Assembly (NCBI GenBank): GCA_016930515.1
Contig: JAFGGO010000064.1
Span: 1 to 11,574 of the forward strand
DNA: 11,574 nucleotides
Direction: 5' to 3'
Source of the DNA: Promethearchaeota archaeon
GTDB lineage: Archaea > Asgardarchaeota > Lokiarchaeia > Sigyniarchaeales > SOKP01
Position 1 is the stretch's first letter. Each line of letters starts with the position of its first letter. Positions 152-11,290 of this stretch are shown piece after piece. The position numbers and the translations under genes were made by a program. The notes below the pieces were generated by a model, which made no database searches, had not been told where the DNA came from, and was given only the letters and a program-made list of their open reading frames with translations.

Positions 152-752
152 TTGAAAATTTATAAAAGTAATATTGTTACTAATAAGGCAAAAACAATAA
201 AAAGATCAATTTTAACGATATTGTTCTTATTTTTTCACATCCAGTTTTCGAATTTTCCCTTTTCAATTTACCTGGACGAAAAACCTGACTATTCAGTAGT
301 CTAAAATAATAATAAAAGATCAATCGAATACCTTGAAAATAAATTCCAAACATAGGACAAAATTATTCTTGGGAGAACGATGGAATAATTATTTGTAATG
401 AATATGTTTCTGCTTTTTATCTATATTAATTCTGCAAAAACCTTGGGATTGGAAGGTGTTGATATTGTAGAGAATCTAATAATAATGAATTTATATTATG
501 GATTGGGTTTCTTAATTTAAATTCAATCCTCTGTTTTTCAAGCAAGGAACAATTGATGTCATAATGAACTATAACGCAATATGTATAATGAAAGATGTGT
601 CCAGAAGAATAATTCATTCTTTCCCTCTAGATTATATACATCGTCTAAAAAAAGAATATTTCGGGGATTCTATCCAATTTGTTTACTTTCTTATAATAAT
701 GGGATTTTTATTTATAGTTCAAATTCTTAAAATTTTTAAATTGATTAATTAA
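152..752 (+). pseudogene. Possible decayed gene for a secreted, C-terminally anchored protein
   Basis: TTG at 152 opens a 50-aa frame with a basic then hydrophobic signal-like segment (KAKTIKRSILTILFLFF), stop at 302-304. A fragment in another frame reads IPNIGQNYSWENDGIIICNE. ORF 564-752 ends in a hydrophobic helix plus basic tail. No intact long ORF. Confidence 0.25.
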
Positions 753-885
753 CTTTATCAAATAACTTTTTTGAACACTTACAACGAGGACACTTGAAGC
801 TATTTTCGTCCAAATTTTCAAATGGTTTCTCGTTCTTTTCATCAATATAAAGGAAATTACATCGCTTACATCGATATATTGCCAT
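745..885 (-). CDS. Rubredoxin-like small protein, 46 aa (MAIYRCKRCNFLYIDEKNEKPFENLDENSFKCPRCKCSKKLFDKVN)
   Basis: Translated by hand; absent from the ORF track. ATG at 885-883, TAA at 747-745, GAGGTGA RBS at 902-896. Pattern YxCxxC..Y...F..L....FxCPxC..K..F is typical of rubredoxins. Starts 26 bp after the oxidoreductase stop on the same strand. Confidence 0.85.
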   Translation of the reverse strand: MAIYRCKRCNFLYIDEKNEKPFENLDENSFKCPRCKCSKKLFDKVN

Positions 886-911
886 TAATCAATATTCACC
901 TCTATTTTTTA

Positions 912-2267
912 TTATTCAAAGCGTTCTTTTTTATAATTCTTTTTTGGAGCATTGCATTCTGGACAAGTCCAATCTTCAGGCAGATCCTTGAATAAAACTT
1001 CCATTATAGCCTCATCGTAAACTGCCCCACAACTCAAGCAAATCCATTTGTATAAGTTGATGGCTTTCCGCAATTCCGCTTCATTTATCGATTTCTCGAT
1101 ATTTTTCGTCACATATGATATAGCTTCATTTTCTCCAAAAAGAATAGCACCTTTTAGGTTATTGTCTTTAAGCACGATTTTCTTGTAACATTTTTCTTTC
1201 GAATCCATACCCTTAAGTATTTGCCATCCCGCACCGATGGTATCCTTGTCCTCAAGATCAAATATACCAATAGAAGTGAGGTCTATTCCCATGATTTTAA
1301 GCGTGTTTTTAGGCACGGTTCCATTGTATTTTATTGAGTGCTTACCAACAATCGAATTTGCGACTATTTTCGCCTGATCAATGCAGGCAGGAATGATGCC
1401 CCATATTTGTCCCTTGAATTCTATGCAATCTCCGACCGCATATACATCTTTTGCGCTCGTCTCTAAAAGATCGTTAACAATGATTCCTCGATTGACTTCG
1501 AGTCCAGAATTTCTCGCTAAATTAATTGTTGGAGTAATTCCCGCTTGAATAAGAACGAGTTCAGCTTTGAGGAAATCTCCCCCATTTAATCGCACGCCTT
1601 TTACTCTATCTTCTTCAATAAGGACTTCTTCAGTTGAAGCATTTAAGACAACCTTGATACCCATCGATTCTATCTTATCTTTAAGTAATCCCCCGCAATC
1701 AACATCCAGTTGCCTTGGTAAAAGCCTTGGAAAAAACTCAACTACAGTTGTGTTCAATCCACAATTTTTTATTTGATTTGCGAGTTCTAGCCCCAACAAT
1801 CCACCGCCTATTATAAGGGCATTCTTGACATCTTCTTGGTCAATGAATCTTTTAATACTTTGAGCGTCTTTAATGTTACGTAAAGTATAAACACCTTTTC
1901 CTACCATGTTGGATGCATTCTTAATCGGAGGGATATTTGGCAAGCTTCCAGTTGCAATAACGAGTTTATCGTAAGAAACGGGATTTTTAAATCCATCAAT
2001 TGAGATATCTTTATTCTCAAGATGTATGCTTGTGATAGTTTTATCCAAGAATTGCTTGATTTGGTTTTTATCGTACCAGTCTTCTTTAAATACGATTAAA
2101 TCCTCAATAGATATCTTTTCCGAGATGACTTCGGGAAGTTTAACTCTCGTGTAATAGGAATGGGTCTCGCTTGAGTAAATCTCTATGTCCGCTTCCGTAT
2201 CAAGGTTTCTTAGATATTGAGCGGTAAAAGTCCCAGCAACGCCGTTTCCAATGATAACGATTTTCAT
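912..2267 (-). CDS. NAD(P)/FAD-dependent oxidoreductase (NirB N-terminal/rubredoxin reductase type) with fused C-terminal rubredoxin domain
   Basis: FAD motif IIGNGVAG, ATGS motif, NAD motif IIGGGLLGLE, ETSAKDVYAVGD. C-terminal WICLSCGAVYDE...FKDLPEDWTCPEC is a rubredoxin signature. Confidence 0.92.
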   Translation of the reverse strand: MKIVIIGNGVAGTFTAQYLRNLDTEADIEIYSSETHSYYTRVKLPEVISEKISIEDLIVFKEDWYDKNQIKQFLDKTITSIHLENKDISIDGFKNPVSYDKLVIATGSLPNIPPIKNASNMVGKGVYTLRNIKDAQSIKRFIDQEDVKNALIIGGGLLGLELANQIKNCGLNTTVVEFFPRLLPRQLDVDCGGLLKDKIESMGIKVVLNASTEEVLIEEDRVKGVRLNGGDFLKAELVLIQAGITPTINLARNSGLEVNRGIIVNDLLETSAKDVYAVGDCIEFKGQIWGIIPACIDQAKIVANSIVGKHSIKYNGTVPKNTLKIMGIDLTSIGIFDLEDKDTIGAGWQILKGMDSKEKCYKKIVLKDNNLKGAILFGENEAISYVTKNIEKSINEAELRKAINLYKWICLSCGAVYDEAIMEVLFKDLPEDWTCPECNAPKKNYKKERFE

Positions 2268-2346
2268 AGGTTTATAACTGTGAACATCTTATATTAAACT
2301 TTTTATTATTTTACATGAATAAGAATATCTCGATTTTATTTTAAGA

Positions 2347-2356
2347 GAACATGTTC
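2347..2356. promoter_or_regulatory. Palindromic putative operator GAACATGTTC in the oxidoreductase/cooS divergent promoter
   Basis: Perfect 10-bp palindrome, repeated identically (with following GA) at 5158-5167 in the next divergent promoter. Confidence 0.65.
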
Positions 2357-2479
2357 GATAAAATCGTTATATCAAGTAGTCGGTTATGTTTCATTGATCA
2401 TCTACAAATTATAAATAAAAATAATATTAATCAAACAATCTTACACGATTCTTAAAAAGAATAAAAGTGGTGAAATAAT

Positions 2480-4384
2480 TTGGAAAAAGAAAGAATTTCC
2501 TATCACGATACGGTCTTAAAGCTTTACGATAGGATTAAAAAGGACGGAATTACCAATATATGGGATAGATATGAAGCACAAGGGTTTAGCGGAGATCCAG
2601 ATAAAAGATGCCCGTTTTGTCTAAAAGGAGCGAGATGTGATCTATGCTCCAATGGCCCTTGTAGGGCAGACGCTTCCATTGATAAACGTGGCGTTTGTGG
2701 GATGACATCAGACGGAATGGCAATGAGGATGATGCTTCTCAGGAATGTGATGGGCACATCCACCTATCATTACCACACGGAAACTACCTTGAGGACGCTT
2801 AAAGCAGTCATTGATGGAAAATCTCCGTTTAAAATAAGCGAACCTGAAAAGTTAAGGAAATTCGCCTCCCGATTGGGGTTAAATGTTTCTGGGTCCGAGA
2901 TTCAGATTGCATCGAGACTTCACGATTTCGTCAAGGAGGATTTCAATAGACCTTTTACCGAACCAAGCAATATAGTTGAGAAATTAGCACCCTTGGAAAG
3001 ACAAGAAATATGGAAAAAAATTGGTATTTTTCCTGGCGGATTGTACGGTGAAATGATGTTCTCCACCAGTTCTTGCCTTACAAATGTGGACGGATATTAT
3101 ATAAGCTTGGCGTTGAAGGCCATGAGGCTTGGCATCGCAATGGCCTATCAAAGTCAAATCGTTAACGAGTATACACAGGACATATTGTTTAATATTCCTC
3201 GACCACACGAGATGCGGGTGGATTTAGGCGTGTTAGATCCCGATTACATTAACATCTTACCGAACGGACACGAACCCTTCTTGGGGTTTGCAATGGTTCA
3301 GCTAGCTCGCAAGCCCGAGTGGCAGGAAAAGGCCAAAGCAGTTGGTGCTAAGGGTTTGAGGATAATTGCAAACATCGAAACAGGCCAAGAAATGATTCAG
3401 AGATGGGAAATGGATGATGTTTTTTACGGTTTCACGGGTAATTGGATCATGCAGGAGGCGCTTCTTGCGAGCGGATGCGTGGATGTTTTCGTATGCGACA
3501 TGAACTGCTCAATGCCGATCGATCCGATATATGCAGAAAAATACAAGTTCAAGCTAATACCAGTCTCTGAAGTAGTTGCGTTCCAAGGCGTTGAAAACCG
3601 ATTGGATTACGTTCCAGAACTGGCAGAACAGCAAGCAGCAAAATTGCTTGAAATGGGGATCGCAAATTTCAAGGAAAGACGTGATACTGTCGATCCGATA
3701 ACGGGACTGACTATTAACAATGCTGTAGTTGGTTTCTCCACGGAAAGCATACTCGAAGCGCTTGGTGGCACGCTTGAACCTCTTTTAGGCGCCATAAAAA
3801 GCGGTACGATACGAGGAATTGCGGGATTAATCTCATGTACGACTCTTCGTGATTCTGGACAAGATGTGCATTCGATTGCTGTAGCCAAGGAGCTCATCAA
3901 GCGAGATGTCTTAGTGCTTTCAATGGGATGCGGAAATGGCGCTATGCAAGTTGGAGGGCTATGCTCTCCCGAAGCCAAGGAATTAGCAGGTCCTGGTCTA
4001 AAGGCTCTATGCGAAAGACTTGGAGTCCCTCCAGTTCTAAGTTATGGGACGTGTACTGATACGGGTAGGGTTGCTGACCTGATCGCCGCCGTTTCAAGCG
4101 CTTTAGGGGGCGTTCCAATCCCGGACCTACCTATCGTGGCTGCTGCACCGGAATACATGGAACAGAAGGCAACGATCGACGCGATTTTTGCGCTTGCGTT
4201 TGGTCTTTATACCTATGTAAATCCAGTTCCCACTGTAACGGGAGGTCCTGACTTGGTAAAGCTTCTCACGGTCGACTGCAAGGACGTTACAGGTGGAATA
4301 ATGCATGTGGAAACGGACGCAAAAGAAGCCGTTGACGCAATGCTCGTTCACATCGAAGCTAACAGAAAAAAATTAGGAATTTAA
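2480..4384 (+). CDS. cooS: Ni,Fe-CO dehydrogenase catalytic subunit family (prismane/CODH fold), divergent hybrid-cluster-like type (CooS-V-like)
   Basis: TTG start with GGTGA RBS. D-cluster CPFC (C44,C47). B-cluster C53,C56,C61,C73. Active-site positions H264 (NGHEP), E300 (NIETG), C343, C453, C484, C525, and EQK (E561, K563). GFSTE motif; 634 aa. Confidence 0.92.
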   Translation: MEKERISYHDTVLKLYDRIKKDGITNIWDRYEAQGFSGDPDKRCPFCLKGARCDLCSNGPCRADASIDKRGVCGMTSDGMAMRMMLLRNVMGTSTYHYHTETTLRTLKAVIDGKSPFKISEPEKLRKFASRLGLNVSGSEIQIASRLHDFVKEDFNRPFTEPSNIVEKLAPLERQEIWKKIGIFPGGLYGEMMFSTSSCLTNVDGYYISLALKAMRLGIAMAYQSQIVNEYTQDILFNIPRPHEMRVDLGVLDPDYINILPNGHEPFLGFAMVQLARKPEWQEKAKAVGAKGLRIIANIETGQEMIQRWEMDDVFYGFTGNWIMQEALLASGCVDVFVCDMNCSMPIDPIYAEKYKFKLIPVSEVVAFQGVENRLDYVPELAEQQAAKLLEMGIANFKERRDTVDPITGLTINNAVVGFSTESILEALGGTLEPLLGAIKSGTIRGIAGLISCTTLRDSGQDVHSIAVAKELIKRDVLVLSMGCGNGAMQVGGLCSPEAKELAGPGLKALCERLGVPPVLSYGTCTDTGRVADLIAAVSSALGGVPIPDLPIVAAAPEYMEQKATIDAIFALAFGLYTYVNPVPTVTGGPDLVKLLTVDCKDVTGGIMHVETDAKEAVDAMLVHIEANRKKLGI

Positions 4385-4390
4385 AAAAAA

Positions 4391-4585
4391 TTATTTTTTC
4401 TTTTTTATTTGATATACTCCATCTGATAAAAGCATGAAGTGCAGTTTTCCGTATTTATATACTTTATCGACCTTGTTATTTTTTGCGATTTCGATAAATT
4501 CTTCCCAAGTTTTAATTTTGACAATCCTACCGGCTTTCATTACATTGGTAACTTCAAGAATTTTAAAATTCTCTGTCATTTTCAC
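4391..4585 (-). CDS. Small basic hypothetical protein (62-64 aa)
   Basis: Protein-like composition on the purine-rich strand; converges on cooS with a 6-bp gap. No recognisable motif. True start may be the ATG at 4579. Confidence 0.55.
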   Translation of the reverse strand: MKMTENFKILEVTNVMKAGRIVKIKTWEEFIEIAKNNKVDKVYKYGKLHFMLLSDGVYQIKKKK

Positions 4586-4753
4586 TTATTCCCTTTTCCT
4601 TTTATTTGTATGGTTTTCATTTTTTAATTTTACATCTAATTTAGATATAATTATATAAATATTAATTTTTTTTTTAAGCAATCACGAATCTCTCTGTCCA
4701 TTATACTTCAAATGGAATATATTCTTCTCAAAAAAATGAAAGATATTTACCTT

Positions 4754-5092
4754 CTAAAGAATCTTTGTTTCTTCCATAGGAGTTGGCGTTTTTATTACTA
4801 AGAATCGGAATGGCTTGCCAGAATTGTTCGAAAGTTTATGGGGGATCCTTGCGGGGCTAAAAACCAAATCGTCCTTTCTTACGAGTTCTTTTTCGTCACC
4901 AATTTCGATTTCACCTTCTCCTTCAATTATGTAAAAGTTCACATCTACGGGAGTGACATGTTTTTTCACGGCTTCTCCCGGTTTTAATTTGATGTGTACA
5001 ATAGTGGCGTGTTCAAATTCCATTAATTTTCGCACGTCAACTCCGTGGGGAGTTTGGGCGATATTTACTTCATTCATGTTTACAATTTTCAT
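4754..5092 (-). CDS. Cupin domain protein (Cupin_2)
   Basis: LKPGEAVKKHVTP..FYIIEGEG and VFSPARIPHKLSN cupin motifs; GAGG RBS upstream of the ATG. Confidence 0.9.
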   Translation of the reverse strand: MKIVNMNEVNIAQTPHGVDVRKLMEFEHATIVHIKLKPGEAVKKHVTPVDVNFYIIEGEGEIEIGDEKELVRKDDLVFSPARIPHKLSNNSGKPFRFLVIKTPTPMEETKIL

Positions 5093-5157
5093 ATTTCAAC
5101 CTCAATTATTTATTTTTTTAAAAACATTAATATTGAAATTGATAAAAAAATTTTTGT

Positions 5158-5167
5158 GAACATGTTC
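5158..5167. promoter_or_regulatory. Palindromic putative operator GAACATGTTC in the cupin/ferredoxin divergent promoter
   Basis: Identical to 2347-2356. A related copy, AAATATATTC(GA), follows at 5176-5185. Confidence 0.65.
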
Positions 5168-5238
5168 GAAATAAAAAATATATTCGAGCCGAAGGTATAT
5201 TCATCTAAAGAACAAGAAATAAATGGAATTGACTTTCA

Positions 5239-5994
5239 ATGACGGAAGCCAAGAAAAAAGTAATAAAACGAAAAATAATTGAAATAAATGAAGAAAAATG
5301 CACTGGTTGTGGACAATGCGTTATTGCCTGCGCTGAAGGTGCTCTTGCCATTATTGATGGAAAAGCAAGAGTCGTAAACGATGTATTTTGCGATGGTTTA
5401 GGTGCTTGTATTGGTGAATGTCCTGAAGGCGCTTTAGAAATTATTGAACGGGAAGCCCCAGATTTCGATGAAGAAGCAGTAGAAAAATACTTGGAAAGTA
5501 CTTCAAAAACTAAAAAAATCCCAGAAGATAAATCCATCAATCAAGGACATGTTTGTAATTGTCCCTCTTCAGCACCAATAGTTTACGACCAACCATACGA
5601 GGAAATCGATGGCTCTGATCAGATTCTATCTGCTTTGCGGCAATGGCCGACAAAACTATCTCTAGTTAATCCAAATGCACCATATTTCAATAATCAAGAG
5701 CTATTAATTATATCTGATTGCTCCCCCGTGGCATTTGGCGATTTTCACAGGAAAATTATGAAAGGTAAGCCTCTTGTCACCGTCTGTCCCATGTTAGGAC
5801 TAGGAGAACTCGAGTTGAATAAGTTAGAAGAAATTTTAAAAAGTAACCCAATCGAGCACGCGGAAGTAATTCTAATGGAAGTGCCTTGTTGTCAGAAATT
5901 AAAAATCTTTTTGGACCCAATCATTGGAAAGATAGATCGGGATATTTCAATCGAAGAAAAGATTATTTCTCGAGAAGGTAAGATAATCAATTGA
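5239..5994 (+). CDS. 4Fe-4S dicluster ferredoxin-domain protein with C-terminal Cys-containing domain (FrdX-like, family often adjacent to hcp)
   Basis: CTGCGQCVIAC and CDGLGACIGECP ferredoxin motifs, CNCP, family motifs LRQWPTKL.LV.P.APYF, SDC..AFGDFH, CPML and MEVPCC. Confidence 0.85.
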   Translation: MTEAKKKVIKRKIIEINEEKCTGCGQCVIACAEGALAIIDGKARVVNDVFCDGLGACIGECPEGALEIIEREAPDFDEEAVEKYLESTSKTKKIPEDKSINQGHVCNCPSSAPIVYDQPYEEIDGSDQILSALRQWPTKLSLVNPNAPYFNNQELLIISDCSPVAFGDFHRKIMKGKPLVTVCPMLGLGELELNKLEEILKSNPIEHAEVILMEVPCCQKLKIFLDPIIGKIDRDISIEEKIISREGKIIN

Positions 5995-5997
5995 TAA

Positions 5998-6053
5998 AAT
6001 TTTATTTTTTCGGACCTATTTTTATTTTTCAAATCTGGTTTTTTTATATTTTT
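5998..6053 (+). terminator. T-tract terminator region between convergent ferredoxin-domain and regulator genes
   Basis: Several runs of 4-7 T immediately after the TGA TAA stop, typical of archaeal intrinsic terminators. Confidence 0.4.
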
Positions 6054-6112
6054 AGCAATATTATAATCCAAATAAGTCATATCAATATATAGATTATAAT
6101 CAAGAGCATGTT

Positions 6113-6769
6113 TTATTTGTTGAAAACTACTTTTTTCTTAATGATCTTTCTCATCATGACGGAGAGCGCGGATTTAGATTTACCCAAATCGTTTGCGAGC
6201 TCTTCAAGCGATATTTTCCGGGGAATTTCGAAAAATCCTGTCTCTATTGCTTTATCCAAAACGGTTGATTCCTCGAGCGTGAGTTTATTCGAATCGTCGT
6301 TGAGATTGTAGGGGGCCCTACCTAAACGAAGTAATTCGAAATCTAAGCCTTTCTGTTCGAATAACGAGAGCAGCTTGTCGATGCGTTCCCTTGAGGCAAT
6401 AAGTCTCCAGTAAGCATTACCATCTCTCACATTTACAGGAAAGTTAACCAGCACGCCGCATTTAATAACAGCGTATAATAAGTAGGGATCTTTTGTTTTC
6501 ACATTAAATTTCACGCGAGTGTCTTCTCGCTCCATCAGGTTAAATTCAAATACGGAAGGATGGTTTTTAATTACTTCGATAATAGCGTCGATTTTATGGT
6601 ATAAAATTTCAACGATCGAATTTCCAATGGATTTCTCCAAATCGTAAGGAAGAAAATATTGAATTTCCATCTTAACATCCGGAAATTGGTTGTAAATCGT
6701 TGCTATCCAAATGTCTTTAGGAAATTTTATTTTTATTCGAGCGAGAGATGGTTGAGTGCCACCGTTCAT
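6113..6769 (-). CDS. Transcriptional regulator with C-terminal HTH_10 (bacterio-opsin activator-type) domain
   Basis: C-terminal LTLEESTVLDKAIETGFFEIPRKISLEELANDLGKSKSALSVMMRK matches the LT..Q..L..A...GY(F)..PR...L.ELA..LGIS pattern of HTH_10. The N-terminal ~160 aa is a putative effector domain. Confidence 0.88.
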   Translation of the reverse strand: MNGGTQPSLARIKIKFPKDIWIATIYNQFPDVKMEIQYFLPYDLEKSIGNSIVEILYHKIDAIIEVIKNHPSVFEFNLMEREDTRVKFNVKTKDPYLLYAVIKCGVLVNFPVNVRDGNAYWRLIASRERIDKLLSLFEQKGLDFELLRLGRAPYNLNDDSNKLTLEESTVLDKAIETGFFEIPRKISLEELANDLGKSKSALSVMMRKIIKKKVVFNK

Positions 6770-7082: not shown

Positions 7083-7889
7083 ACGGACAGTCTTGAGTTA
7101 TTTATTATAGTTGTTTACAATTCGATTATTGCCATATTTGCGTGCGTGGCGTTAGGACTAGCTAGTAAAACGCAAAAGAACTTGAGATCTTGGCTTTTAG
7201 TATATATATCTTTTGCCTTAGCGAATCTTTTCTTATTTATCCGTTTTGCTTTGTTCCTGTTTTACTACTTGGCAAATATTTTCTTTGCGGTGGCAGTAGT
7301 ATTCTTGTTCGGAGTAGTATTTAAGGAATATTTCAAACTTTTCGTTAGAGCTGACCACATCAAAACGAGTTTAAAAAATACAACGATTGGTGTTTCGCTA
7401 GTTCCTCCAATAGTAATAGGGATTCAAATTTTTATGTTTATTTTTATATCGATTAGTATCTTAATGTTGATAAGAATTTATATGAAAACTCGGTCTGTCA
7501 CCAAGTTATTCTTCCTTATAAGTACCGTATCAGCGTTATTAAGCGTGCTAATGAATATTCTATATAGTTTTGGGGTTAAAGGCACTTCCTTTCTCAGTTA
7601 TCTCTTTAATGCTTTTTTTTCTACATTAATGCTATCTTCTGGATTCATTGCATTATTAGAGAAAAAGTTTTATGACACTTTGAACGAAAAAAACTCGCTA
7701 AAGGACAAATATTCTCACGATTTAGGAAATATACTCCACGTCATTTCTATGACATACGATTTATTTAACATTGATTCTGTTTCAAATTTCAAAAAGGACG
7801 AAAAAAAAGAGTCTAACGATTTAGACGATCTAATAAAGGTCAAAATAAACGAAGCATCAAAGTTGGTCAGAGATATCAGAGATCTTTAA
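7083..7889 (+). CDS. Multi-pass membrane protein with C-terminal HisKA/DHp-like segment, no HATPase domain
   Basis: About six hydrophobic helices, then H-box-like YSHDLGNILHVI and a second helix (INEASKLVRDIRDL), then stop. The frame is open upstream of the track's GTG (7146) back to 7077; GAGGT RBS at 7070-7074 precedes ACG at 7083. Confidence 0.7.
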   Translation, partial: TDSLELFIIVVYNSIIAIFACVALGLASKTQKNLRSWLLVYISFALANLFLFIRFALFLFYYLANIFFAVAVVFLFGVVFKEYFKLFVRADHIKTSLKNTTIGVSLVPPIVIGIQIFMFIFISISILMLIRIYMKTRSVTKLFFLISTVSALLSVLMNILYSFGVKGTSFLSYLFNAFFSTLMLSSGFIALLEKKFYDTLNEKNSLKDKYSHDLGNILHVISMTYDLFNIDSVSNFKKDEKKESNDLDDLIKVKINEASKLVRDIRDL

Positions 7890-8042: not shown

Positions 8043-8639
8043 ATGGAACAAAAAGAAAATTTACTTCTTGGAATATGTGGTAGCCCGAGAAATCAAGGTA
8101 CGGAATACGCCGTTAAATATGCCTTGGATTACGCTAAAGAGAAGTTTGATTTTAAAACGGAATTTTGGAGCGTTAGAGGTAAAACCATAAAGTTTTGCAT
8201 CCATTGCGACTATTGCATTCGAGAGAAAAAAGGATGCATGCATGTTGATAACTTGGATGAACTTTATTCCTTACTAAAGGAAGCTAAATTCCTCCTCCTT
8301 GGAACACCCGTTTTTCAAGGAAATTTATCAGGACAACTCAAGACTGTAATGGATCGCTGTCGGGCTTTAATCGCGTTAAATCCAGATGTATTCAAGGGAA
8401 AAGTTGGGATGGCACTAGCGGTCGGTGGAGATCGGAGCGGAGGACAAGAAATCGCAATCAGGACGATACTTGATTTTTTTCAGCAAAATCACGTGATTTC
8501 CGTTTCTGGAGGAGCTTTTGGAGCAAATATTGGAGCAAGTTTATGGACGAGAGATCAGGGAAGAAAAGGCGTGGAACAGGATGAAGAGGGCCTTAGAGCG
8601 ATCAGGAAAGTCGTTAAAAGAATGGCAGATTTCTTATAA
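8043..8639 (+). CDS. Iron-sulfur flavoprotein (Isf-like; flavodoxin-fold NADPH-dependent FMN reductase family)
   Basis: GICGSPR FMN-phosphate loop, compact CIHCDYC-x6-C 4Fe-4S motif, GTPVFQGNLSGQLKTVMDR and GGDRSGGQE motifs. Confidence 0.9.
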   Translation: MEQKENLLLGICGSPRNQGTEYAVKYALDYAKEKFDFKTEFWSVRGKTIKFCIHCDYCIREKKGCMHVDNLDELYSLLKEAKFLLLGTPVFQGNLSGQLKTVMDRCRALIALNPDVFKGKVGMALAVGGDRSGGQEIAIRTILDFFQQNHVISVSGGAFGANIGASLWTRDQGRKGVEQDEEGLRAIRKVVKRMADFL

Positions 8640-8693: not shown

Positions 8694-8990
8694 TTATTTT
8701 ACATCGAATAATTTTTTTGCTTCCTTTTCTCTCAAACCCGACACTCCCCACAACTCCTTGAACCAATATTTTCCCTTATGAATGACCACGGGTGTGTTCA
8801 CGACGCATTTATCCTCGTCGCAAAATATTTTCAGGAAGTTTGGATCGTGCACTAGCTGGTCCACGAGTTCTTTGTCTTCGATACTTTTTTCTACATACTG
8901 GACATTCTTTTTCTTTAGCCAATCTTTTAGATCGTGACAATGAGAACAACCTTCTTTTGTGATAACAATGGGTAATTGCATTTCCGTCAT
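8694..8990 (-). CDS. Glutaredoxin-like protein
   Basis: N-terminal TKEGCSHC active site, K.WL....V.Y.E.SI segment, cis-Pro-like NTPVVI..GK. Confidence 0.82.
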   Translation of the reverse strand: MTEMQLPIVITKEGCSHCHDLKDWLKKKNVQYVEKSIEDKELVDQLVHDPNFLKIFCDEDKCVVNTPVVIHKGKYWFKELWGVSGLREKEAKKLFDVK

Positions 8991-9116: not shown

Positions 9117-11273
9117 TTATTGGACATCCAATTGATTTTTACAATAGGGGCAATTTAATAATATTTCCTCGTCGCAGGTCTCTAATTCTTCGCTTTTTAA
9201 AATGTTCTTCCAGCACACGAGCTTGTCACCTTTTAAAATCATGTCTCTCCCGTGATGTTGAGGAATGATGTCCTTTGTCTTGCAATGGGAACAAATCAGC
9301 GAAGTTGCTTGCGATTCGATCTCTTCTATGGGCATTTGTTTGTATAAGAACTTATAACGGAAGATAGTCATTCCGTTTGCGAGTACGAGCAATGAAACGC
9401 CCATATCGCCAATACCTACGGCTAACCAGAGTGTCATGAGTCCAATTACGGTTAAAAACGCAAAAGTGAGCTTTATTGAAATAGAAGTCCAAATATTTTG
9501 TTTAATTTTTTTGTTCGTTTTTTTTGCAATATCCACGAAAGTAAGAATCTTTTTAAGATCGTCGTTAATTATAATTACATCGGCAGTCTCAACGGTAATA
9601 TCTGTCGCTGATGCACCAATTGCTATCCCTAAATCAGATAATGCCAAAGCAGGAGCGTCATTGATCCCATCTCCGACCATCGCAACGCCTTTATATTTCT
9701 TTTTTAAATCTTTTATTTCCTCTGATTTTTGGTTTGGTAACCTCTCACCTAGCGACTCATCTATATCCAAACAGGACCCTATTGTATTGCATACGAGTTG
9801 ATTGTCGCCTGAAATTAATACAGTCTTAAATCCACGCTTTTTTAAACCTTCAATAATGATTGGTGCAGTCACTCTAAGCACGTCCCGTATAGTGATAAAA
9901 CCGATAAATTTAGTATCGAGAGCTAATAAGATTGGAATGGTGCCTAACTGTTCGACTTCTTCTAAGTCCTTTATAGGTAGATCAACACCGAATTCTTCCA
10001 GATACGCTTGATTTCCAATTCGATAGGTTTTACCCTCAATTTCACCTTGGATCCCCTTGCCTTTCGCAATTTCAAAATTATTTACGGGATAAAACGATAT
10101 TTCTAACGTGCTAGTTTGATTCGTTATGGCTTTTCCTATTGGATGTTCCGAAAGAGATTCCAAGCTTCCGGCAATCTTCAGAAGTTCGCTTTTTTCAAGT
10201 CCATTATATGGTACGATATCAAATATTTTAAGCTTTCCTTCCGTCAATGTTCCCGTTTTATCAAACGCAAATACTTCAATTTCTTTTACCTTCTCTATAA
10301 AACGATTTCCTTTGACTAAAATTCCTTCTCTTGCGAGTTTTGTAAGTGAGGCGATGTTAGCTAAGGGTGTTGACAATGTTAATGCGCACGGACAGGAAAC
10401 CACGAGGAGAACCAGCCCTCTATAAAACCAATCGTAAAAATTATGAAAGAAGAATTGAGGGACAATCATTACTGTCAAGGATAATGCTAAAATAACCGGC
10501 GTGTAATATTTTGCAAATTTTTCAATAAATTTTTCTTGCTTGCTCCTATTTAATTGGGCAGTTCTCACACTGTCAGCGATCTGTGCAACCAAAGTATTCG
10601 TGCTTTCCTTTAAAACGGTCATGTCTATAAAACTATCTGAATTTAGGCTAGCTGCAAATATTTCATCACCTTCTTTTTTATAAACGGGAATTGATTCACC
10701 AGTTATCGCGCTTTCGTTGAAATATGAACTTCCTTTTATTATTCTACCGTCTAAAGGCACCTTCATTCCCGGTTTAATGCCAACTATTTCCCCAATTTTG
10801 ACATCCTTCGATAGTACACTCTTATATCCCTTTTCTGTTTTCAATAAAGCTTCGTCTGGTGCTAGCTCTAATAAGTCCTTTATTGCGTTTCGGGACTTAT
10901 CTGCCGTTATTTCTTCTAATTTTTCGGCAATTGAATATAATAAAATTGCCATTGCACCTTCTTGACCGTGTAGTATGAAAAAGGACGCAATTGCTGCGAT
11001 AACCATTAATATATTAGCAGATATTCTCTTATTTTTTAAGTCTTCGATGGCTTCCAACACCACTCCTGGACTCGAAAACATTATCGATGTAAAAGCAAGT
11101 ATTTGAGAGATAATTACCTCTTCAAGAACAAACTCTACAAATATTGCAATACCAATCAATATTGCTGATGGAATGATAAAAAACCAGAACTTTTCTTCAA
11201 AAAACGATTCTTTTTCTTCCTCGATTTCTCCTAATGGAACTTCGCAAATAGAACTAGAGCAGGCGTGCGTCAC
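9117..11273 (-). CDS. zntA: Heavy-metal P1B-type ATPase, probably Zn/Cd/Pb-exporting (P1B-2)
   Basis: TGES, SCPCAL, DKTGTLT, SEHP and GDGINDAP motifs. Lys in the penultimate TM and Asp (GDMG) in the last TM fit P1B-2. Start placed at GTG 11273-11271 because the track's GTG at 11282 lies inside an AGGTGA RBS. Confidence 0.9.
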   Translation of the reverse strand: MTHACSSSICEVPLGEIEEEKESFFEEKFWFFIIPSAILIGIAIFVEFVLEEVIISQILAFTSIMFSSPGVVLEAIEDLKNKRISANILMVIAAIASFFILHGQEGAMAILLYSIAEKLEEITADKSRNAIKDLLELAPDEALLKTEKGYKSVLSKDVKIGEIVGIKPGMKVPLDGRIIKGSSYFNESAITGESIPVYKKEGDEIFAASLNSDSFIDMTVLKESTNTLVAQIADSVRTAQLNRSKQEKFIEKFAKYYTPVILALSLTVMIVPQFFFHNFYDWFYRGLVLLVVSCPCALTLSTPLANIASLTKLAREGILVKGNRFIEKVKEIEVFAFDKTGTLTEGKLKIFDIVPYNGLEKSELLKIAGSLESLSEHPIGKAITNQTSTLEISFYPVNNFEIAKGKGIQGEIEGKTYRIGNQAYLEEFGVDLPIKDLEEVEQLGTIPILLALDTKFIGFITIRDVLRVTAPIIIEGLKKRGFKTVLISGDNQLVCNTIGSCLDIDESLGERLPNQKSEEIKDLKKKYKGVAMVGDGINDAPALALSDLGIAIGASATDITVETADVIIINDDLKKILTFVDIAKKTNKKIKQNIWTSISIKLTFAFLTVIGLMTLWLAVGIGDMGVSLLVLANGMTIFRYKFLYKQMPIEEIESQATSLICSHCKTKDIIPQHHGRDMILKGDKLVCWKNILKSEELETCDEEILLNCPYCKNQLDVQ

Positions 11274-11290
11274 TTTTTTCACCTATGATA

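Follow-up and report, generated by a model that had tools for sequence, protein, structure and literature searches.

The stretch of DNA analysed here, called the window in the following, is the entire 11,574-bp contig (C114) of a Promethearchaeota metagenome-assembled genome (MAG; assembly of 4.0 Mb, 35% GC, 94% complete). The nearest relatives of its proteins all carry Promethearchaeota or Asgard MAG labels. We are concerned with a gene for a homolog of the carbon monoxide dehydrogenase (CODH) CooS, in the Glu-type form termed CooS-V, and with the genes around it. The cooS-V gene (2480..4384, (+)) has a TTG start with GGTGA before it. Divergent from it runs an operon for a FAD-containing NAD(P)H:rubredoxin oxidoreductase with a C-terminally fused rubredoxin domain (NROR-Rd; 912..2267, (-)) and, as its last gene, for a rubredoxin-like Cys4 mini-protein of 46 aa (Rd; 745..885, (-)) that shows the motif CxxC...CxxC. 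A second divergent pair consists of a Cupin_2 protein of 112 aa, of the type associated with hcp (4754..5092, (-); Cupin_2 E 1.5e-15), and a protein of the FrdX family that combines a dicluster ferredoxin part with a C-terminal alpha/beta domain (5239..5994, (+)). Each of the two spacers carries one copy of a strandless, operator-like palindrome, GAACATGTTC, which is extended by the same GA at both sites. Copy 1 (2347..2358, 10-mer 2347-2356) is followed by a TATA-like TTATATCA at 2367-2374, and copy 2 (5158..5169, 10-mer 5158-5167) by a TATA-like AAAAATATAT at 5174-5183. The gene for a regulator of the HTH_10 family (6113..6769, (-)) comes next.

An earlier note, made from the sequence alone, had described the two divergent gene pairs with one common palindrome, the HTH_10 regulator after them, and a window free of cooC, cooF, acetyl-CoA synthase (ACS) and hydrogenase genes. 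All of this holds: both palindrome copies are conserved in relatives, and family searches of all open reading frames (ORFs) of the contig found none of these four kinds of gene. We consider it fairly probable that one Loki-type family of Asgard archaea has a cluster of oxidant-stress genes, represented by the window, in which CooS-V takes the place of Hcp and is served by FrdX.

A Glu-type CooS homolog

The CooS homolog covers the CODH scaffold at full length (PF03063 E 6e-133; TIGR01702 708 bits versus a cut-off of 478 bits). The Hcp model TIGR01703 yields 23.4 bits against a cut-off of 360.8, so that the protein is not a member of the Hcp family. Its best match in the PDB is CooS-V of Carboxydothermus hydrogenoformans (CooS-V Ch; 7b7q, E 1e-201), aligned over residues 5-634 versus 4-629. 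At the position of the C-cluster ligand Cys295 both proteins have Glu (NIETGQE here, IESGQE in 7b7q), whereas canonical enzymes read CCTGNE, and the complete Cys/His ligand set of a functional Ni,Fe-CODH is thus lacking. The extra Cys for a bridging [2Fe-2S] cluster (Gly41 to Cys) is present and the CxxC-type D-cluster motif is kept. The motifs RCPFC...C..C, NGHEPF, DMNCS, SCTTL, GCGNG, GTCTDTGR and MEQKATID align with 7b7q and retain, as far as sequence can tell, the His, the four Cys and the Glu556 region. By these residues the window protein is the Glu-type (CooS-V) form, and its likeness to CooS-V Ch predicts an Fe/S/O hybrid cluster on a CODH scaffold. Among 50%-identity representatives, Glu in place of Cys295 occurs in two clusters only; the next relatives retain Cys.

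CooS-V Ch has an Fe/S/O hybrid cluster without Ni and shows neither CO oxidation nor detectable NO reduction (Jeoung et al. 2022, PMC9311411). The cluster titrates at -390, -170 and +80 mV and restructures with its redox state, and hydroxylamine is reduced slowly by the purified protein, at 0.13 per s (PMC9311411).

A scan of one genome per species gave more than 538 Glu-type CooS-V loci. Across Dehalococcoidia, WOR-3, Actinomycetota and Desulfobacterales, and in the same range in Methanolobus, Methanofastidiosum, Bathyarchaeia, Thermoplasmata and Jordarchaeia, these proteins are 74-78% identical to the window protein, which suggests a very slowly evolving protein spread widely by lateral transfer. 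A quick FastTree of Glu-type CooS-V, whose support values were not inspected, interleaves bacteria and archaea on very short branches. One Methanosarcinales homolog with 72% identity (G305:C1:1841650-1843551) contains a single in-frame TAG, either a case of pyrrolysine read-through or a broken gene.

Gene order, palindrome and candidate regulator

For comparison within the own family and the Asgard archaea, CooS-V loci were collected from 36 Asgard genomes (545 kb in total). The same order is found in 17 of the 24 family genomes with CooS-V: Rd and NROR-Rd (leftward), palindrome, cooS-V, the frdX-like gene, HTH_10 (leftward), a flavoprotein gene of the FMN_red family and a glutaredoxin (Grx)-like gene (leftward), with protein identities of only 45-85%. 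Where family genomes lack CooS-V, the NROR-Rd/Rd operon is kept in 10 out of 11, divergent from frdX and with the palindrome in between, and the same HTH_10, FMN_red and Grx-like genes follow. These loci identify NROR-Rd/Rd, frdX and the regulator block as the core. CooS-V looks like an insert that brought a second copy of the operator, in line with its elevated GC content (0.44-0.46 versus 0.35 in the genome), and the cupin is a further insert in the window and a few relatives.

The FMN_red protein (8043..8639, (+); PF03358 E 7e-27) is syntenic and 70-80% identical in relatives and has a compact CX2CX2CX6C motif, which we take to be the four-Cys motif of iron-sulfur flavoproteins (ISF); by this motif it is ISF-like. 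The Grx-like CxxC protein (8694..8990, (-); PF00462) is a syntenic member of the same conserved block, with 60-74% identity. Both lend the cluster a stress context, as do the redox-type regulators found in other lineages (see below). A multi-pass membrane protein of 247 aa (7146..7889, (+)) has a histidine-kinase-like H-box (SHDLGN) but neither an ATPase domain nor a match in Pfam. Its gene separates HTH_10 from FMN_red in this genome alone; relatives have the two genes directly divergent, without it. Positions 1-740 of the window (27% GC) showed no convincing ORF or family match.

The 12-mer GAACATGTTCGA has only two sites in the 4.0-Mb genome, and these are the two divergent spacers of the window. 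The 10-mer GAACATGTTC occurs five times where 4.4 copies are expected, and two of the five fall inside the two spacers, which together span 358 bp. Judged by the window alone, the two copies do not reach significance, since 15 out of 200 shuffles reach that number; the weight of the palindrome comes from the genome-wide count and from conservation. In the loci of the 36 Asgard genomes 32 exact palindromes were found against an expectation of about 0.6, and nearly all of them are located upstream of cooS-V or frdX, even when frdX directly follows cooS-V. Among the 17 orthologous NROR/cooS-V spacers the palindrome is exact in 13 and has one mismatch in three more, and in two relatives (loci L011 and L057) the cupin has a palindrome of its own. 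This pattern gives good support to a predicted conserved regulon with a shared operator.

The pooled palindrome sites give TTCGAACATGTTCGAA. From the end of the palindrome to the TATA box there are 7-10 nt, a fixed register for both cooS-V and frdX, and the start of frdX follows 38-71 nt after the palindrome in nearly all family members. Many frdX transcripts must be leaderless, since the ATG comes only 39-42 nt after the palindrome. The NROR-Rd start lies at a variable distance of 55-170 nt, and this gene has its own TATA box. The fixed register places the palindrome at the position of the transcription factor B recognition element (BRE) of the two plus-strand promoters and far upstream of the minus-strand ones. 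We propose that cooS-V, frdX and, in some relatives, the cupin gene are transcribed from separate promoters, each of which would carry TTCGAACATGTTCGAA at the BRE position directly before the TATA box.

The motif is confined to the family: among 56 CooS-V loci of other Asgard families and other phyla, each flanked by 1 kb or more on either side, none has the palindrome next to CooS-V. It is absent from the HTH_10/FMN_red spacer as well, so that the flavoprotein and Grx-like genes are syntenic but not shown to belong to the same regulon. A further 41 non-coding genome sites with one mismatch were considered as regulon members and rejected, as none of them combines T-rich/A-rich flanks with the TATA register. 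Their neighbours are unrelated genes (RIO-like, DUF166, PEPCK, a TM1586-type nitroreductase, a PAS kinase, an SDR and others).

The HTH_10 protein carries a C-terminal PF04967 helix-turn-helix (HTH; 45.7 bits versus a cut-off of 23.1), and its gene lies tail-to-tail with frdX in every family locus. Orthologs (at least 61% identity) are restricted to the own family, where 35 out of 40 genomes have one, a range that equals that of the palindrome. As a family-specific neighbour, this protein is the likely binder of the palindrome, and its role as a candidate for binding GAACATGTTC is plausible but unproven; the pairing of regulator and operator, and with it the sign of the regulation, is what we infer from the locus. 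The earlier proposal of a regulon with its own regulator thus stands as far as the conserved palindrome and the constant nearness of HTH_10 are concerned, whereas the common distribution of the two, seen in one clade, is weak evidence for their pairing. The predicted structure consists of two beta-alpha-beta-beta modules plus the HTH. A fold search with the sensor part returned only Ta1207, YajQ and DapE-type beta-alpha-beta-beta modules, from which neither a cofactor nor a signal can be derived. Several family genomes encode a second HTH_10 paralog of about 30% identity (L014:604-1239 (-); G183, G147, G125, G071, G153, G195), and in one genome of the same genus (G168) this paralog is found just downstream of cooS-V.

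Accessory proteins common to Hcp and CooS-V

The ferredoxin-domain protein of the window is, by sequence similarity, a member of the FrdX family. It has an N-terminal dicluster region (CxxCxxCxxxC / CDGLGACxxxCP; Fer4 families) and a conserved C-terminal Cys4 domain of alpha/beta type, which is PF27217 by precomputed annotation and contains four invariant Cys (C161, C183, C217, C218). The structure model reaches a pLDDT of 80, and fold matches of the C-terminal domain (RecR Toprim, Z 7.5; beta-carbonic-anhydrase-like, Z ~6) are generic alpha/beta matches from which no function could be drawn.

In anaerobic bacteria, Rodionov et al. (2005, PMC1274295) described the pair hcp-frdX under the regulators HcpR or NsrR. 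We searched 81 genomes of a deltaproteobacterial order, 75 of which carry hcp, with an FrdX profile (A2) that had been built only from proteins neighbouring CooS-V, and counted adjacency to hcp by hand. In about 57 of the 75, a full-length match (E ~1e-90) immediately follows hcp on the same strand. The cupin behaves in a similar way. Methanolobus sp. WCC5 has a true hcp followed, after 49 bp, by a cupin of 112 aa that is 53% identical to the window cupin over 112/112 aa, and this cupin lies directly downstream of hcp in 12 of the 15 hcp-bearing genomes sampled from the Methanolobus order. It occurs on its own as well and is thus no obligate partner. We also rejected a rule by which the cupin would go with either enzyme wherever one is encoded, since Methanosarcinales genomes without hcp have no cupin beside CooS-V.

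A survey of the neighbourhoods of Glu-type CooS homologs, which had been proposed along with the first interpretation of the locus, points to the same two families. FrdX is the commonest neighbour family in the 56 loci of other lineages, where it lies directly adjacent to CooS-V on the same strand in 13 (among them loci of Dehalococcoidia, WOR-3, Methanofastidiosum, Methanophagales, Thermoplasmata and Jordarchaeia). The small cupin is second and a P1B ATPase third, while NROR-Rd is not found next to CooS-V in any of the 56. In WOR-3 and another bacterium (L097, L105, L107, L131), a 3-Cys Rrf2 regulator gene precedes cooS-V-frdX by about 20 bp on the same strand; in Methanofastidiosum (L100, L104, L109, L124), an HxlR regulator (RrpA/RrpB-like) is divergent from frdX-cupin-cooS-V. 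Together with HTH_10, these contexts indicate that the redox-type regulator joined to this module differs between lineages.

The window itself ends with a gene for a P1B-type heavy-metal ATPase (9117..11282, (-), family match). A related P1B ATPase is found directly downstream of CooS-V in seven loci (L112, L116, L118, L120, L121, L123, L136), which belong to Methanolobus, Methanosarcinaceae, Bathyarchaeia, Methanophagales and Syntrophobacterales. Metal export may be connected with the CooS-V module.

A separate hcp, whose presence in the genome was a further point to be checked, was not found with TIGR01703 in the 94% complete assembly; its sole Prismane-family genes are cooS-V and two cdhA. 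Among 201 Asgard genomes sampled, hcp is present in 2 and CooS-V in 39. The Asgard hcp loci (L044, L045) have no FrdX beside hcp, though these are two loci only, one of them on a 5.9-kb contig. In some other organisms, such as C. hydrogenoformans, hcp and CooS-V co-occur.

The earlier note had placed the Glu-type CooS homolog in the genomic role of Hcp, and had stated that this ferredoxin-domain family and cupins commonly flank hcp in anaerobes. The counts agree with the latter, and the former is well supported by the FrdX and cupin families common to hcp and CooS-V and by the rarity of hcp in the Asgard sample, with none found in this genome, a conclusion drawn from gene content and context. 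CooS-V and the hcp-frdX module were known before. What appears to be new is that both accessory families of Hcp, FrdX and the cupin of 112 aa, also accompany CooS-V across unrelated phyla; that one Loki-type family has its own wiring of operator, candidate HTH_10 regulator and attached NROR-Rd operon; and that hcp is so rare in the Asgard sample, whereas about a fifth of the genomes have CooS-V.

Electron path, alternative readings and known systems

In the reading that we prefer, CooS-V, with its CODH fold, predicted Fe/S/O hybrid cluster and presumed lack of CO dehydrogenase activity, would be the terminal enzyme and replace Hcp, acting on an Hcp-type oxidant (hydroxylamine, NO or peroxide). 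FrdX is most likely its electron partner, and the small cupin would be a third component. Rubredoxins have potentials of about -50 to +50 mV, and Cys4 [4Fe-4S] clusters of about -300 to -400 mV (PMC10502027). The couples of CooS-V Ch at -390 and -170 mV fit a [4Fe-4S] donor, which makes FrdX the better thermodynamic match; by analogy, rubredoxin could serve the +80 mV couple only.

The NROR-Rd operon would then be a co-localised, NAD(P)H-dependent input module whose conserved neighbour is frdX and not CooS-V. The reductase shows the domains Pyr_redox_2 (E 2e-54), Rubredoxin_C (E 7e-14) and Rubredoxin (27.6 bits versus a 23-bit cut-off). It is NorW-like with E 2e-49 but below the cut-off, and as all NCBIfam equivalogs stay below their cut-offs, it is assigned to the broad family only. 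The mini-protein scores below the 23-bit cut-off of Pfam Rubredoxin (E 7.7e-4, 19.9 bits) and has two CxxC pairs, with one loop shortened; it is kept directly downstream of NROR-Rd in relatives, with 50-60% identity. Elsewhere the genome encodes a superoxide reductase (SOR), at least three rubrerythrins, two flavodiiron protein (FDP)-like proteins and a canonical rubredoxin. These are possible users of reduced rubredoxin, and NROR-Rd may thus be their general supplier; it may feed either them or the high-potential steps of FrdX/CooS-V. A separate oxidative-stress cluster (G000:C156:19790-21219), in which the palindrome was not found, combines a superoxide reductase gene with genes for a rubrerythrin that has a rubredoxin-like tail and for another rubrerythrin-like protein.

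Several points weigh against the preferred reading. The slow turnover of hydroxylamine and the missing NO reduction of CooS-V Ch leave Hcp-like catalysis unproven. FrdX is not next door in 43 of the 56 loci of other lineages, and it occurs in Asgard families without both CooS-V and hcp (75 out of 201 genomes), so that it is not an exclusive partner of CooS-V. On the regulatory side, neither sequence nor structure model of HTH_10 shows a conserved Cys or a recognisable cofactor site, its own promoter lacks the palindrome, and its link to the palindrome consists of adjacency and co-distribution in a single clade, which are not independent evidence. Finally, in Methanobacteriales a rubredoxin domain is fused to class III Hcp (PMC10502027); by this analogy, a contact of rubredoxin with this enzyme class is conceivable.

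It is conceivable, if doubtful, that NROR-Rd, Rd and FrdX form a three-part reductase, a functional analogue of Hcr, which passes NAD(P)H electrons on to the terminal enzyme of the respective genome: this would be CooS-V in genomes that have it, and elsewhere something else or the Cys4 domain of FrdX itself. No part of the locus is more conserved than the divergent NROR-Rd/frdX pair and its palindrome, and the second, uncharacterised FrdX domain with its invariant Cys would suit such a role. However, to reduce a conventional [4Fe-4S] ferredoxin domain of low potential, rubredoxin would have to pass electrons uphill, and outside the family FrdX goes with hcp or CooS-V but without NROR-Rd.

A linear chain, in which electrons pass from NAD(P)H via the FAD of NROR and the fused or free rubredoxin to CooS-V, which reduces NO, hydroxylamine or peroxide, had been proposed in the earlier note and is in our view unlikely. 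The conserved arrangement divergent from cooS-V, with the palindrome between, would suit it, as would the precedent of class III Hcp and a +80 mV couple within the reach of rubredoxin. Against it, the operon stays beside frdX in nearly all family genomes without CooS-V and is missing at CooS-V in all 56 loci of other lineages, its distance to the palindrome varies while that of cooS-V and frdX is fixed, and the two lower couples lie far below rubredoxin. Rubredoxin as the dedicated electron donor is thus the weakest link of the original proposal and probably wrong in its simple form.

There is little to recommend the view that CooS-V serves in redox sensing or regulation instead of detoxification, with neighbours that are merely co-regulated stress genes. 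The very low hydroxylamine turnover and the redox-dependent restructuring of the cluster in CooS-V Ch (PMC9311411) are compatible with it, and a preprint on genomic context (bioRxiv 10.1101/2025.09.14.676152) suggested that clade D proteins may sense redox state. On the other hand, CooS-V has dedicated electron-transfer and accessory partners in common with the enzyme Hcp, and its identity of 74-78% across phyla is what is expected of an enzyme's active site and interfaces. We give equally little credence to a much wider version of our own reading, namely that CooS-V/FrdX/cupin is a general, interchangeable replacement of Hcp/FrdX/cupin in anaerobes and the main hybrid-cluster detoxifier of Asgard archaea, with NROR-Rd and FrdX as a two-potential input in the Loki-type family, possibly by flavin-based bifurcation. 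NAD(P)H would there reduce both the high-potential rubredoxin and the low-potential FrdX needed for the -390 mV state of CooS-V.

A working Ni,Fe CO dehydrogenase for CO metabolism or the Wood-Ljungdahl pathway is extremely improbable, in spite of a score for TIGR01702, the CooS equivalog model, that exceeds the cut-off and of an acetyl-CoA decarbonylase/synthase (ACDS) in the genome, given the same Glu at Cys295 that is found in the Ni-free and CO-inactive CooS-V Ch, and a contig without cooC, cooF and acs whose genes beside cooS-V are stress genes. The two cdhA-type genes (ACDS alpha) encode 782 and 797 aa (G000:C167:3583-5328; C158:12226-13965), and CO/acetyl-CoA chemistry is thus encoded elsewhere.

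With an oxidant-stress cluster around CooS-V as the preferred reading, the role and the electron partners of clade D CODH homologs gain a testable context, namely electron transfer from FrdX to CooS-V. The cluster is also relevant to the way in which archaea related to eukaryotes deal with oxidants.

NROR/rubredoxin chains of oxidative stress occur in strict anaerobes such as Pyrococcus and Clostridium acetobutylicum, and NorW/NorV in E. coli is a related case. The window has in common with them a FAD-dependent NAD(P)H:rubredoxin oxidoreductase with Rubredoxin_C and rubredoxin, as well as SOR, rubrerythrin and FDP-like acceptors in the genome. It differs in that its reductase is fused to a rubredoxin, is followed by the 46-aa rubredoxin-like protein, and is divergent from frdX or cooS-V. 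Class III Hcp of Methanothermobacter (PMC10502027) is likewise a homodimeric hybrid-cluster enzyme associated with rubredoxin and poses the same thermodynamic puzzle; its rubredoxin is built into the enzyme as a domain, whereas in the window rubredoxin resides on a separate reductase linked to frdX.

CooS-V Ch and the window protein agree in the exchange of Cys for Glu, the CxxC-type D-cluster motif and all remaining motifs for cluster ligands. CooS-V Ch, which belongs to the Glu-type subclade of clade D and is the only characterised member of that clade, was described without informative gene context, and a 2026 survey of same-strand operons saw no pattern for clade D; the window protein, in contrast, comes from an archaeal host, and its gene cluster is defined, conserved and equipped with an operator motif. 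The hcp-frdX modules resemble the window in the same FrdX family beside a hybrid-cluster enzyme, in methanogens in the same small cupin, and in a palindromic operator before both the enzyme gene and frdX with a regulator gene next door. They are distinguished from it by their enzyme, which is Hcp there and sits on a dimeric CODH scaffold here, by CRP/FNR or Rrf2 regulators in place of an archaeal HTH_10 protein, by the motif, which is GAACATGTTC in the window, and by the NROR-rubredoxin operon that is attached here.

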